From an uncultured Methanosarcinales archaeon (lineage in GTDB: Archaea; Nanobdellota; Nanobdellia; Woesearchaeales; GW2011-AR9), in the NCBI GenBank assembly GCA_964604645.1, contig CAZRZP010000001.1:9394-73393 (forward strand): a stretch of 64,000 nucleotides of DNA. The letters run 5' to 3'. The position numbers were made by a program, and so were the translations under genes. The stretch's first letter is position 1, and every line of letters begins with the position of its first letter. A model generated the notes under the pieces. That model was not told the DNA's origin. It worked only from the letters and a program-made list of their open reading frames with translations, and searched no databases. Shown here one piece after another: positions 11,501 through 57,493 of this stretch.

Positions 11501-11659
11501 TTACTTTTTGCCCATGATTCTAAACATGGTTGTGCTACAAGTTGGGCAGGTCCCTTTCATTGCTCTTCTTTCGGTTCCACCTTTGCCTTTCATAGTAACT
11601 TCTTTAGCTTCAGACATCTCTCTTTTTGCTTTACACTTAACACAATATCCTTCTGTCAT
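11501..11659 (-). CDS. small zinc-ribbon protein (CxxC...CxxC)
   Basis: Internal ATG preceded by 'gaggtgg'. Product is 'MTEGYCVKCKAKREMSEAKEVTMKGKGGTERRAMKGTCPTCSTTMFRIMGKK'. The listed 87-aa ORF probably over-extends at the 5' end. Confidence 0.4.
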   Translation of the reverse strand: MTEGYCVKCKAKREMSEAKEVTMKGKGGTERRAMKGTCPTCSTTMFRIMGKK

Positions 11660-11777
11660 AATGATCCACCTCGAATCTGTTTTTTGCAAATTATACACTT
11701 GCCTAAGCCTATTTAGGCTGCTACTCTTAAAAACCTTTCGGAAAAATAAGCATAAAATTAGCACAAATGGTATTTTC

Positions 11778-12158
11778 TTAAAGCAAACTGAATGTATTTA
11801 ATTTAGGAATATCTTCACTGCAATAAGGACAATTTCTTGGTCTTTTTCTAAATGGATCGTACTTAAATGAATATTTACAAGCCGAACAAGTACATTGAAT
11901 TTGATCAGTTCCAGGAATTTTTTTGAACTGAGCTTTAACTTGTTGCTGTTTTAGTTTAGCCGCTTTTTCTAAATATTCATCTTCTTGATCCCAGCCAGGT
12001 GGTTTAACATCAACTTTCTTTTCTTCTTTAGCTTTTAATTTCTCAGTTCTACCAGAATAACAATTTGGACAGACCATTAACCTATATTTATAATGTAATT
12101 TAAACGAATCCGCAGGTGCAGATTTCTCACAAACTTTACAGATAGCAGATATGTTCAT
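11778..12158 (-). CDS. zinc-ribbon protein (two CxxC pairs at each end)
   Basis: 'CKVCEK...CPNCYSG' and 'CTCSACK...CPYCSEDIP'. Lys-rich coiled middle. Confidence 0.4.
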   Translation of the reverse strand: MNISAICKVCEKSAPADSFKLHYKYRLMVCPNCYSGRTEKLKAKEEKKVDVKPPGWDQEDEYLEKAAKLKQQQVKAQFKKIPGTDQIQCTCSACKYSFKYDPFRKRPRNCPYCSEDIPKLNTFSLL

Positions 12159-12302
12159 ACTTGTTGAATAAACTCATCATTTTTATGTTTTACTTTAATG
12201 TAGAGTAGAGATTAAAGCAATTTGTTCCTGATTTGCTCAAAGTAATATTTAAATACCCAAACTCTTTCCTCTTCTAAAAGAGGCTGATAGAATGCATGAA
12301 TT

Positions 12303-12944
12303 TTGGTGGGCATATTTATAGTTGAATATACTATGCGAATGGTCGTTGCTAAGAAAAAAGTAAAACATTTTTTTAACATCTATAGCCTCATAGATTTAAT
12401 TGCTATTTTACCTGTGATGGTTCACTTTGTCAATCTATCCTTCTTTAGAATATTCAGGATTTTAAGGATGTTTAGAATGTTGCGGGTTTTACGTTTTCAA
12501 AGGATATTCAAACAGAAAAATACTATGTTTGGTAACCTTACTGACACACAACTTATTGTTATTAGAATCGTACTCACCGTATTTACAATTGTCTTTGTAT
12601 CTTCAGGAATGATTTGGGCTGTTGAAAGTAAAGTTAATCCTGATTATGGGACTATTTGGGATTCAATGTATTTTTCAATTGTAACTCTATCAACAGTAGG
12701 TTATGGTGATGTAACTCCACTATCTGTATGGGGGAAGATTGTTACCATTGTGATGATATTGTCGGGTATTGCTCTGATTCCATGGCAATTAGGAAAACTG
12801 GTTAAAGTTTTATTCATGTCTGCTGGCAAAGGGCAGAATAAATGTAAGAAATGCGGTTTAGCAGATCATGATTTAGATGCACAACATTGCAAGAATTGTG
12901 GCAGAAAACTTAACAAAAAACCTAAAACAGAAAAACCTTCTTAA
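12303..12944 (+). CDS. minimal K+ channel: S3-S4 voltage-sensor paddle, pore domain (TVGYGD) and a C-terminal zinc ribbon
   Basis: Selectivity filter 'TLSTVGYGDVTP'. S4 with Arg every third residue: 'FRIFRILRMFRMLRVLRFQRIF'. C-terminal 'CKKCG...CKNCG'. An in-frame stop lies immediately upstream, so there is no S1-S2. An ATG at 12333 is an alternative start. Confidence 0.7.
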   Translation: MVGIFIVEYTMRMVVAKKKVKHFFNIYSLIDLIAILPVMVHFVNLSFFRIFRILRMFRMLRVLRFQRIFKQKNTMFGNLTDTQLIVIRIVLTVFTIVFVSSGMIWAVESKVNPDYGTIWDSMYFSIVTLSTVGYGDVTPLSVWGKIVTIVMILSGIALIPWQLGKLVKVLFMSAGKGQNKCKKCGLADHDLDAQHCKNCGRKLNKKPKTEKPS

Positions 12945-14139
12945 TTTTTTTAACTTTTTCTTTAAAGTATTTTTCTTTAACTAAAAACTTGACATATTCT
13001 TCTGCTTCAGTATGTTTGACTTTAACTTTACCCCAAACATGTCCATTTTTTATATAATTATTTTTATGAAATTTCTTAAACCTCTTAACATGTTCCTTCA
13101 TAGGAAGAGGGGGACCTTTACGTTCTTCAACTGCTGCAATCTTTTTCTTTTTCAAAAAGAAATAATAAGTTACTTCTTTTTTCCAATCCCAACCAAATTT
13201 CTTTACTTCGAATGGTTCTAACTTATTAAGCAAAAAATCTCTACCCTTCACCAATTTCATTCCAACAACATCTGTTTTCCCGCTTAATGGTACCAAGTTT
13301 ATCACAAGCAATGCTTTCTTCTTTCTTTTAGCTTCTTTTCCTAATAATTCTATATTAAATTCTTTCTCTAAAAAGAAATCTTCTTTTGGTTTTTTTAAGA
13401 ATCTCTTTGCTAATTTTTGAAATAATTTATACTTTTCCACTGACACAGCCGCTGCGGCATTTCTTGTTTTATCAACTGGATCCACAATAATCAGTGGACA
13501 TTGAGTTTTTGATGTGTTTAAATTAAACAAAACATCATTTTTTGGATAATATTTAGAAATGTCTATTACTTCCTGGTTTTTCCATTTTATTACAGATTTC
13601 AACACTTTCTCAAATGAACTGTAATGTGCAACTAATATTTCAATGATATATCCACTAAAACCAGCAATATGTGATTCAGCCCCGTATAAACCTTGCGCTC
13701 TACAAAACTGTTTTAACAATAGTATTTCATCTTTCTTTCCTTTTGTATGTTTATTTACCCATTTACTATGTAATGGAGAAATGTCAGTAATGTTTAATGC
13801 CTGTTCGGCTTTAGATATTTCTACAATTGGCACTAGTTCAAATAGAATTCCCTTATATTTAACTTGAAAATAATCTCTACTTCCATGTAATCTATCAACT
13901 TTTTTGAAAGATTTCTTAAGTTCAACTTCCAATTTGTCTGAAATATCGTTAACATTTTTTGGAAAGATCACAAAGATATCAATATCATGACTATTTGCTA
14001 ACCATGTTTCTTTTGCACCACTCCCTCCCAGTATTGTTTTGTATTTAATCTTCTTCAGAAATTCTTTGATTATAGACTTTAATTTCGCTTTTTCTTGAGG
14101 TCCTGGCCGAATTCTTTGCAAGATGGTTGAATAATCCAT
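12922..14139 (-). CDS. cca: archaeal class I CCA-adding tRNA nucleotidyltransferase
   Basis: 'GGSGAKETWLANSHDIDIFVIFP' matches the archaeal CCA enzyme catalytic motif (GS...DIDIF). The listed ORF extends to 14193. I prefer the start at 'MDYSTILQRI'. Confidence 0.75.
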   Translation of the reverse strand: MDYSTILQRIRPGPQEKAKLKSIIKEFLKKIKYKTILGGSGAKETWLANSHDIDIFVIFPKNVNDISDKLEVELKKSFKKVDRLHGSRDYFQVKYKGILFELVPIVEISKAEQALNITDISPLHSKWVNKHTKGKKDEILLLKQFCRAQGLYGAESHIAGFSGYIIEILVAHYSSFEKVLKSVIKWKNQEVIDISKYYPKNDVLFNLNTSKTQCPLIIVDPVDKTRNAAAAVSVEKYKLFQKLAKRFLKKPKEDFFLEKEFNIELLGKEAKRKKKALLVINLVPLSGKTDVVGMKLVKGRDFLLNKLEPFEVKKFGWDWKKEVTYYFFLKKKKIAAVEERKGPPLPMKEHVKRFKKFHKNNYIKNGHVWGKVKVKHTEAEEYVKFLVKEKYFKEKVKKIKKVFLF

Positions 14140-14227: not shown

Positions 14228-14509
14228 ATGGCTACCTTGCGCTTAACTGCAGACTGTTTTCGTTGTGGAAAGAACTTTGAACAGAAGGAGATGCGAAAAG
14301 TTCCTTCTTTAACTGATAATAAGCGTTTTGAATGTTTCAGCTGTTTCCGTAATTATAAGTACGCAGTAAAGATGTCAAGGGCAAGAAAATTAACTTTATA
14401 CTGTGAGAGATGTAAATTTAAATTTTCTTCAAGGGGCAGAACTTGTCTTTATTGTAACAAGTCAGACAGTGTAGTTAGAGGAAATATTACCGCAAGTGAT
14501 TTATTGTAG
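14228..14509 (+). CDS. small Cys-rich zinc-finger protein
   Basis: Four CxxC pairs: 'CFRCGK', 'CFSC', 'CERCK' and 'CLYCNK'. Confidence 0.35.
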   Translation: MATLRLTADCFRCGKNFEQKEMRKVPSLTDNKRFECFSCFRNYKYAVKMSRARKLTLYCERCKFKFSSRGRTCLYCNKSDSVVRGNITASDLL

Positions 14510-14527: not shown

Positions 14528-14878
14528 ATGAAATTTCATGGAAGATTTTATGCAGGTATTGCGTTAATAGTATTAAGCTTAGTCTTAGGGAAATTAACTA
14601 CCTTTACTTTTTTCTACTTTTTTTCTGATAAATATTGGCAGGTTGCTTCAGTCATAATTTATATTCTTTCCTGGATACCTCTTTTTTGGGGTATTTGGTG
14701 GGTTGGAGCTGAATATGCTGATTCAATACAAAGATATTTTTCTTATAAATTTTATCATCACTCTGTTAAGAAAAAAACTAAAGTTGCCATTAACCGCGGA
14801 AAAAATATCCATCAAAAAGTAAAAAGAAAAATAATAAAAAAGAAGTTAGATAAAAAGAAAATCAAGCCACAGCAATAA
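14528..14878 (+). CDS. small membrane protein with a Lys-rich tail
   Basis: Three hydrophobic helices, then 'KKKTKVAINRGKNIHQKVKRKIIKKKLDKKKIK'. Confidence 0.35.
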   Translation: MKFHGRFYAGIALIVLSLVLGKLTTFTFFYFFSDKYWQVASVIIYILSWIPLFWGIWWVGAEYADSIQRYFSYKFYHHSVKKKTKVAINRGKNIHQKVKRKIIKKKLDKKKIKPQQ

Positions 14879-14943: not shown

Positions 14944-15324
14944 ATGAATAGTGCATTAGCTTATGGAATTATTTTTGTTTTAGTTGGAATATATCTTAGT
15001 TTAGTTTTATTTGTATTAGATACAGGTAGTTTATTTGGTTTAATTCAAATTGCTGTCTTAACTGTAGTTATATTTGGATTAATCATTTCTATTGATAAAA
15101 AACGTGAGAAGGGTCCTGCTGATCCTTTAGCAGGTGAAGTTCAACAAGAAACAAATGTACAAGTTAACGTTCAAAATCAACAAACACAGCAGCCAGCTCA
15201 ACCTACAGCACAACCAGGGGATCAACAGCAACAACAGACTCAACAACCAGCAGCACAGCAAGAACAAGTTCCTGCACAACAACAAGATCCTACACAAGAA
15301 CAGCAAGTACCTATCTTAAAATAA
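14944..15324 (+). CDS. membrane protein with a Gln/Pro-rich low-complexity C-terminus
   Basis: Two TM helices, then 'QNQQTQQPAQPTAQPGDQQQQQTQQPAAQQEQVPAQQQDPTQEQQ'. CAA/CAG-rich DNA. Confidence 0.4.
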   Translation: MNSALAYGIIFVLVGIYLSLVLFVLDTGSLFGLIQIAVLTVVIFGLIISIDKKREKGPADPLAGEVQQETNVQVNVQNQQTQQPAQPTAQPGDQQQQQTQQPAAQQEQVPAQQQDPTQEQQVPILK

Positions 15325-57003: not shown

Positions 57004-57024
57004 CAGAACTATAACATAGTTCTG
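57004..57024 (-). terminator. hairpin at the 3' end of the wHTH gene
   Basis: 'cagaactat-aac-atagttctg', a 9-bp stem overlapping the stop codon region. Confidence 0.25.
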
Positions 57025-57326
57025 ATACTTTCAATGTTTCCTGCGATTTCTTGGCCTTTTTTTGTTAACTCTAACAACTTAAGACGACCTTCTTTCTTAA
57101 AATTAATTAGCTCTGCTTTCTGCATCTCTTGTAAAATCTTTACAACATGCGAATAAGTGCAGTCTATTTGCTTCGCCAAAACTGAAGCATAGATGTTACT
57201 ATTGGCATTCTTTAACTCTACCAACATCATGGCTGGTTTTTCTCTAAAAAACACGTCAAATATCGATTTATTTCTATTCAAGTTGGACACCCCCAAACTC
57301 ATCCCCACCTCAAAGTTAGGGTACAA
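57009..57326 (-). CDS. winged-helix DNA-binding protein (MarR/TrmB-like fold)
   Basis: 'NIYASVLAKQIDCTYSHVVKILQEMQKAELINFKKEGRLKLLELTKKG' is an HTH plus wing pattern. Confidence 0.4.
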   Translation of the reverse strand: MYPNFEVGMSLGVSNLNRNKSIFDVFFREKPAMMLVELKNANSNIYASVLAKQIDCTYSHVVKILQEMQKAELINFKKEGRLKLLELTKKGQEIAGNIESIRTML

Positions 57327-57493
57327 TAGTTGTATTTAAACATTTATTTACTCTAATACACCTAATGCAACCTAGAGGTTATAAAAATCTTTTGTATCTG
57401 TTTTCACGAACAAATTTGTTTTTTTTTTGGAAAATAATTTGTTCTCATGAATAAAAAGCTTACTGCATTACACGAAAGCTTTTAAGCAATTCA

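Follow-up and report, generated by a model that had tools for sequence, protein, structure and literature searches.

Within a stretch of 64,000 nucleotides of contig CAZRZP010000001.1 (positions 9,394 to 73,393), which derives from an uncultured archaeon and is called the window below, a gene related to voltage-gated potassium (Kv) channels was identified on the plus strand. The longest open reading frame (ORF) of the truncated channel gene extends from a TTG codon at 12303 to position 12944 and specifies 213 amino acids without an internal stop. All parts of a pore module, S5, pore helix, a TxGYGD filter, and S6, are present in its product, which is matched by the Pfam models Ion_trans_2 (E 3.3e-18, 65.8 bits with a cut-off of 22.5) and Ion_trans (PF00520; E 5.6e-17, 62.2 bits with a cut-off of 25). 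The Ion_trans match is restricted to profile positions 43-221 of 241 and begins inside S2. Based on these scores, and on matches to the structures of Kv4.2, Kv1.2, Shaker, and KvAP with E values from 1e-11 to 1e-16, the filter, S4, and helix features of the ORF are homologous to those of Kv channels and no chance resemblances.

The order of elements encoded by the ORF is as follows: there is no S1 and no complete S2, and S3-S4, the pore, and a zinc ribbon follow. Residues 1-16, VGIFIVEYTMRMVVA, represent the C-terminal (inner) half of S2 and not a linker, and orthologs read ...LVSIFIVEYAARMWVA at the point where the ORF starts. The entire S2 remnant, ILVGIFIVEYTMRMVVA, is located at 12300..12350 and includes the F, E, Y, and R residues that are invariant in the family. 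S3 comprises residues 26-41 (12378..12425) with the invariant D31, as deduced from the secondary structure in an AlphaFold2 (AF2) model, invariant columns, and the alignment to Kv4.2. S4 comprises residues 48-70 (12444..12512; translation, alignment, conservation, and AF2), in which R49, R52, R55, R58, R61, R64, R67, and K70 supply a basic residue at every third position, eight in all. S5 was assigned to residues 81-111 (12543..12635) by structure alignment and AF2, with a predicted local distance difference test score (pLDDT) of 87-91. It is followed by the pore helix, residues 118-131, and the selectivity filter TVGYGD, residues 131-136 (12654..12710 together, the filter at 12693-12710; Pfam, alignment, conservation, and AF2), and by the inner helix S6, residues 142-174 (12726..12824; conservation and AF2), with a conserved IPWQLGKL motif. 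Right after S6, the zinc ribbon CKKCGLADHDLDAQHCKNCG is encoded at 12843..12902, assigned by cysteine conservation, with C181, C184, H189, C196, and C199 and the geometry C181-x2-C184 ... C196-x2-C199. All these elements are on the plus strand. The original prediction for this locus, which was made from the sequence alone, had described the canonical filter correctly. It had also recognized the spacing of the basic residues in S4, counting seven instead of eight, and a single helix in front of S4, which holds for S3 as the only full helix and leaves out the inner half of S2.

To place the truncated product among its relatives, 5.8 billion proteins were searched, yielding 1547 matches. The exact protein, called as 201 amino acids starting at M13, is found on several contigs. 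The next approximately 90 matches, with 51-79% identity, are nearly all 277-358 amino acids long, and the named close matches derive from metagenome-assembled genomes (MAGs) of Woesearchaeota or Nanoarchaeota. The N-terminal part of these orthologs consists of a lysine-rich tail, S1 (...HGRRIEGTLFFLNFLAIVLFIIDTY...), a loop, and a complete S2 (...ILVSIFIVEYAARMWVAEKK...), and their sequence from S2 onward is collinear with that of the window ORF, ribbon included. S1-S2 is present in every one of the 85 full-length orthologs with 270 or more amino acids, and the roughly 85 orthologs with 55-79% identity typically measure 290-340 amino acids. In addition, one genome per species of GTDB was scanned, and counts were taken from the best 80 homologs. 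The filter is preceded by 130 residues in the window ORF and by about 184-215 in the homologs; at least 190 residues were counted in 79 of the 80, the exception being one broken copy. In an alignment of 59 homologs, the F, E, Y, and R of S2, the aspartate of S3, the S4 arginines, the filter, and four cysteines are invariant or nearly so; R49-R61 as well as T, V, G, G, and D of the filter show no variation at all.

Both tblastn and DNA alignments revealed that homology to the orthologs starts abruptly at base 12300, in the middle of S2 and directly after a TGA codon. About 95-125 residues are missing: the N-terminal tail, S1 with the loop that connects it to S2, and S2's outer half. Compared to all orthologs the gene is truncated, with the breakpoint at approximately 12300, and a complete S1-S4 voltage-sensor domain in front of the pore is lacking. 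Six shorter family members (P0071, P0080, P0081, P0085, P0087, and P0094) were considered as further examples of an S3-S6 architecture and were rejected, as they are contig-end fragments or genes split by frameshifts or stops, and the split ones still carry N-terminal coding sequence upstream. Interrupted channel genes were seen at several loci, with frameshifts in L013 (525-1399) and L014 (2570-3444), and an in-frame stop in L015 (2079-3011); a bacterial MAG (L122) also has a copy that is broken. All of these may be pseudogenes or products of sequencing errors at low coverage.

The channel ORF is flanked by two genes on the minus strand. The divergent upstream neighbour (11778..12158) encodes a 126-amino-acid double CxxC protein that was assigned to no Pfam or NCBIfam family in profile searches, and the convergent downstream neighbour (12922..14139) encodes an archaeal CCA-adding enzyme (Pfam tRNA_NucTransf2 and NTP_transf_2), whose 3' end overlaps that of the channel ORF by 23 nt (12922-12944). 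The same arrangement, a zinc-ribbon gene, a channel gene divergent from it, and a convergent CCA-enzyme gene, was detected at a syntenic locus (L007-L009). There the channel gene is full-length, specifying 310 amino acids, and the upstream spacer measures 171 nt. In L007, channel and CCA-enzyme genes abut without overlap, the 129-amino-acid double-CxxC protein is 60% identical to its counterpart in the window, and the CCA enzyme is 51% identical. A DNA alignment with L007 detected no similarity 5' of 12300, as expected at such divergence.

From these comparisons, the missing S1-S2 is peculiar to the copy in the window and not a trait of the family. A natural class of paddle-only channels, suggested by the original prediction, is unsupported, as the orthologs all carry S1-S2 and the syntenic ortholog is full-length. 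A search for orthologs with the same truncated architecture, proposed there as a check, gave no other example. The prediction had also named the outcome that would speak against it, orthologs with a full S1-S4 domain and a 5'-truncated pseudogene in this place, and the first half of this outcome was clearly observed.

The missing N-terminal part is also absent from the rest of the window. When the N-termini of 14 orthologs were used in tblastn searches, only the S2 remnant of 17 amino acids at 12300-12350 was retrieved, and a hidden Markov model of the N-terminal block, applied to all 845 six-frame ORFs of the window, revealed nothing beyond this remnant; S1 was not found. Two ORFs nearby with two transmembrane helices each (2-TM; 14528-14878 and 14944-15324) were considered as candidates for the missing S1-S2, which they resemble by eye, and were rejected, since neither gave a profile score. 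Should the gene be split, with S1-S2 encoded elsewhere in the genome and complementing the S3-S6 product in trans, these two ORFs would be at hand, and the search covered 64 kb of a 248-kb contig and of a larger genome. The empty profile and tblastn searches and the failure of the 2-TM ORFs to score argue against such an arrangement. Moreover, the break lies inside helix S2 and not at a domain boundary, and both flanks are syntenic with the full-length locus, pointing to a local deletion and not to a rearrangement. A split gene is therefore regarded as highly improbable.

The region upstream of the channel ORF was inspected for start signals. The divergent gene starts at 12158, leaving a gap of 144 nt (12159-12302), which, as had been noted before, cannot encode S1-S2; stops are present in all three plus-strand frames. 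The in-frame stop immediately upstream was likewise confirmed: a TGA at 12297..12299 (plus strand) closes the channel frame one codon (ATT) before the TTG, and the deletion junction is located at or just 5' of 12300, where the ortholog alignments begin. The GC content of the window is 33.5%. Among 45 long ORFs in the window, most are preceded by a TTTAWATA-like box 25-45 nt 5' of the ATG, and the gene layout appears to be of the leaderless or short-leader archaeal type. Shine-Dalgarno (SD)-like 4-mers are found 5' of 12 of these ORFs (about 27%, compared to a background of 9%). A scan for sigma-70 promoters and terminators was uninformative because the host is an archaeon.

In the gap, an archaeal TATA-like box, TTTAAATA, is located at 12248..12255 on the plus strand and is presumed to be the promoter of the channel gene. 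It is followed by an SD-like GAGG (12280..12283, plus strand) 8 nt before an ATG at 12292. The composite pattern of TATA box, 24 nt, GAGG, 8 nt, and ATG, at 12248-12294, occurs twice on both strands of the 64 kb, with 0.05 occurrences expected. The second match (57300-57340, minus strand) falls within ORF 57009..57326, 24 nt past the first TTG of that ORF, and is likely to mark its true start. ATG 12292 is probably the ancestral start codon of the channel gene. In its present position it is offset from the channel frame by one base and opens only a nine-codon ORF (12292..12321, plus strand; MHEFWWAYL followed by a stop) in the +1 frame relative to the remnant. Four candidate starts are in frame, TTG 12303, GTG 12306, ATG 12333, and ATG 12339, and for none of them is a TATA box or SD sequence appropriately positioned. 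Gene callers disagree on the start of the remnant, giving products of 203, 201, 155, or 92 amino acids.

Since ATG 12292 has the best start signals, recoding was also considered. Translation would start there and enter the channel frame by a -1 shift at about 12300-12303, resulting in MHEF-(L)VGIFIVEY..., and a T-run (ATTTTG) is indeed present just past the TGA. Against this possibility, neither a canonical X XXY YYZ slippery heptamer nor an evident stimulatory structure farther downstream is present, and only about 3 nt are available for the shift, between the TGA at 12297-12299 and the rest of the gene. Recoding is hardly to be expected here.

That the remnant is out of frame with the start signals that survive points to a pseudogene. 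The remnant has no start site of its own bearing recognizable signals, and it is therefore most likely a recent pseudogene. In full, the gene is probably a recently 5'-deleted and effectively silent pseudogene of a six-helix (S1-S6) Kv-type ribbon channel in a small archaeon of the DPANN type. A deletion of approximately 0.3 kb would have taken everything from the basic N-terminal tail through S1 and the S1-S2 loop to S2's outer half, while the native promoter-like TATA box, GAGG, and ATG 12292 would have survived and been joined out of frame to the middle of S2, so that the remnant would make little or no product and would be on its way to loss. We infer that the remnant is not usefully expressed and that the deletion occurred recently.

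Neither a chimeric join nor an indel error in a truly full-length gene explains the truncation. Nothing specific speaks for such an artefact, apart from the other short family members, in which the frameshifts and stops could be errors. Four contigs that were assembled separately, three from JGI and one from Logan, show 100% identity over 2.9 kb around the channel gene, and the identical protein sequence is contained in further ENA and NCBI assemblies; the identical allele is probably present in eight or more assemblies. Furthermore, about 300 nt of coding sequence are physically missing, which exceeds an error of frame. An assembly artefact was rejected on the basis of the identical independent contigs, its probability being practically negligible, and the allele is real.

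Several observations do not fit easily with a silent pseudogene. At least four independent assemblies, which come from several samples, contain the allele without a single difference, so it is stably carried. The remaining 213 codons are free of stops and frameshifts. Of the 72 columns with 90% or higher conservation among 85 orthologs, only one is changed in the remnant, which equals the median of the orthologs; this sole violation is a W to V exchange in the S2 remnant. In a neighbour-joining (NJ) tree, the root-to-tip distance is not raised (19th percentile). Signs of secondary decay, stops, frameshifts, or loss of conserved residues, were not found in the remnant, and for nearly all of its history it was under purifying selection. 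From a remnant that is intact and not accelerated it follows that either the deletion is very recent or selection still acts on a short product. Neither reading is favoured by the relatives, the best of which reaches 79% identity, or by the assemblies, which show no variation. No closer relative was detected in the databases; the members of the 90% cluster differ solely in where the start of this one sequence was called. When metagenomes were scanned with the 126-amino-acid neighbour, nothing above 72% identity and no adjoining channel gene were obtained.

Translation of a short product could be achieved by reinitiation, since ATG 12333 and ATG 12339 are located 12-18 nt past the nine-codon ORF, and a product starting there would be expected to keep the native in-out topology, with a lysine-rich N-terminus (KKKVKH) inside. 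The truncated gene could thus be functional, specifying a 201-203-amino-acid subunit of S3-S6 and ribbon. Such subunits would form a K+-selective tetramer through their pore modules, in which an orphan S3-S4 hairpin would face the lipid and voltage dependence would be weak or altered. Besides the preserved N-inside topology, this is consistent with the intact ORF, in which all conserved positions are kept except one in the now useless S2 remnant, with the unaccelerated rate, the retained promoter-like signals, the stability of the allele across assemblies, and the confident model of the pore (pLDDT 87-94).

Other features argue against a functional truncated channel. The same architecture is seen in none of the 85 close orthologs, and the 79 intact homologs from the genome scan are full-length. 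The in-frame starts lack SD and TATA sequences, the only good start signal being out of frame. The charge-transfer centre of voltage sensors, formed by F, E, and D residues, spans S2 and S3. The seven S4 arginines of the remnant would be without S1 and without the acidic partner in outer S2, and a product from ATG 12333 or ATG 12339 would also be devoid of the invariant S2 residues F5 and E8. Given this organization of voltage sensors, stable insertion of such a protein is doubtful. AF2 was unsure on S3-S4: in the model of the remnant, pLDDT values of 52-64 indicate a poorly defined S3-S4, compared to 87-94 for the pore and about 81-85 for the ribbon, while a full-length ortholog reached 87-94 for S1-S2, 85-89 for S3, 66-77 for S4, and 85-88 for the ribbon. 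The low confidence for S3-S4 in the model would fit, as weak evidence, a sensor deprived of its packing partners.

For Kv proteins without a complete voltage sensor a precedent exists. KvLm-PM, an engineered sensorless pore module of a prokaryotic Kv channel, assembles on its own into tetramers that conduct K+ selectively and whose voltage dependence is rudimentary (Santos, Grigoriev and Montal 2008, PMC2585861). The likeness to the window ORF is limited, as the cut in KvLm-PM falls on a clean domain boundary, the S4-S5 linker, whereas the window ORF is cut inside the sensor and keeps S3, the highly charged S4, and possibly half of S2. Taken together, a functional truncated subunit produced, for example, by reinitiation, with the properties outlined above, is considered the main alternative, though an unlikely one, and it is likewise unlikely that the remnant is an expressed, working K+ channel of S3-S4, pore, and ribbon, that is, a natural 'half-sensor' channel. 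The preferred explanation remains a recent pseudogene.

The distribution of the channel gene among related loci is in agreement with a pseudogene. At 17 of 32 related loci, the CCA-enzyme gene is immediately followed by the 126-amino-acid gene on the same strand with a spacer of 54-72 nt and without a channel gene. As the gene is frameshifted or stopped in L013-L015 and absent from these 17 loci, it looks dispensable and frequently lost in these archaea, and loss of a dispensable gene fits the pseudogene reading. In an NJ tree of the CCA enzymes, which is unsupported, the window and L007 are not sisters and channel-less lineages interleave, suggesting that the channel was ancestral at this site with several clean losses or, alternatively, that it was inserted twice.

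Some further observations were made at these loci. A channel gene on the opposite strand between the genes for the CCA enzyme and the 126-amino-acid protein was seen only in the window (11778-14139) and in L007-L009, and not in the loci with the tandem (L016-L040). In L005, L010, L014, and L015, the channel gene is located directly 3' of a co-oriented Carb_kinase (PF01256) gene, and this context is apparently commoner among orthologous loci than that of the window. Three small proteins with cysteine pairs, resembling zinc ribbons, are encoded near the channel and CCA-enzyme genes, at 11501-11764 (minus strand), 11778-12158 (minus strand), and 14228-14509 (plus strand); one belongs to DUF5679, the others to no family.

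The zinc ribbon deserves separate consideration. Pfam zinc-ribbon models gave only sub-threshold matches (E 0.03-0.2), but the four ribbon cysteines are invariant or nearly invariant across the 59 aligned homologs, and CxxC...CxxC follows the pore in 79 of the 80 homologs from the genome scan. The ribbon is therefore a trait of the whole family and not special to the copy in the window. The original prediction was right about the CKKCG...CKNCG ribbon itself, which is not, as had been thought, appended to this protein. Homologs with a ribbon span Cyanobacteria, Bacteroidota, Gammaproteobacteria, Verrucomicrobiota, haloarchaea (Halobellus), and Woesearchaeota/DPANN archaea, and relatives of 256 amino acids from cyanobacteria, for example Chamaesiphon minutus P0118, possess it as well. 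Across the ribbon family (L048-L127; P0002-P0120), the spacing is CxxC-N11-CxxC, and the cysteines plus one histidine are invariant or nearly so. In the PDB, no solved chain, KvAP included, aligns past query residue ~172, so that the ribbon at 181-199 is uncovered, and a literature search for zinc-ribbon Kv channels or K+ channels of DPANN archaea returned nothing relevant.

Comparisons with known channels place the window ORF next to full-length archaeal ribbon Kv proteins such as P0006 (310 amino acids), with 55-79% identity from inner S2 to the C-terminus. Proteins of this type are annotated as 'ion transporter' or 'voltage-gated potassium channel'. The cyanobacterial 256-amino-acid relatives (Chamaesiphon minutus P0118) show about 50% identity over the same region. 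Common to the window ORF and its full-length relatives are the S4 arginine ladder, TVGYGD, IPWQLGKL, and the CxxC-N11-CxxC ribbon; the window copy differs from them by the loss of the lysine-rich N-terminal tail, S1, the S1-S2 loop, and outer S2, and by the lack of a signalled in-frame start. A natural sensorless channel with two transmembrane helices, of the KcsA/Kcv/MthK type, was considered and rejected, because S3 and S4 are present and the close relatives all have six.

Among solved structures, the alignments with Kv4.2, Kv1.2-2.1, Shaker, BK, and KvAP begin at residue 2-23 and extend to about residue 165. The protein would work, or have worked in its ancestral form, in the manner of Kv channels such as KvAP. 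The best sequence match is Kv4.2 (E 7e-16, residues 2-163, inner S2 to S6). Kv4.2, the Kv1.2-2.1 paddle chimera, Shaker, Slo1, and Slo2.2 differ from the window protein, which has neither T1 nor RCK, carries a ribbon as C-terminal domain, and lacks S1 and outer S2. KvAP of Aeropyrum pernix (1ORQ, 2A0L, 6UWM), a prokaryotic six-helix Kv channel, aligns with residues 23-167 (E 3e-11), and MVP, the hyperpolarization-activated Kv channel of Methanocaldococcus (NCBIfam NF040645), was matched with an E value of 1e-25. Both possess a complete S1-S4, in contrast to the window copy. Membership in the MVP equivalog was rejected, since the score of 90.6 bits is far from the NF040645 cut-off of 300; the full-length P0006 also reached only 97.7 bits.

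In Foldseek searches, Kv1, Kv4, and Shaker chains were retrieved with E values of about 1e-5, and the top template modelling (TM) scores were obtained with Slo channels, which are not domain-swapped. For the AF2 models m8cc6acb0479a and m65d72ddd3198, Slo1 and Slo2.2 gave TM-scores of 0.50-0.52 at a root mean square deviation of 6-7 A, and Kv1 and Kv4 gave 0.34-0.41 at about 12 A. The predicted S4-S5 connection is short. Judging from the models, the zinc-ribbon Kv family may be non-domain-swapped, and KvAP is reportedly non-domain-swapped as well.

Rather than a new channel architecture, the truncated gene would represent an ordinary Kv-type gene that is broken in one lineage, and it would illustrate gene loss in a streamlined genome of the DPANN type. 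If the remnant were a working channel after all, it would show that a Kv pore can tolerate an S3-S4 paddle that lacks S1-S2 and may even be modulated by it, and an expressed remnant would offer a ready natural construct for studying how such a paddle inserts and acts in the absence of S1-S2. The conserved ribbon of the large parent family, which is not specific to the window copy, is the more interesting observation. A module for metal binding or oligomerization at the bundle crossing of prokaryotic Kv channels would merit structural and functional study.

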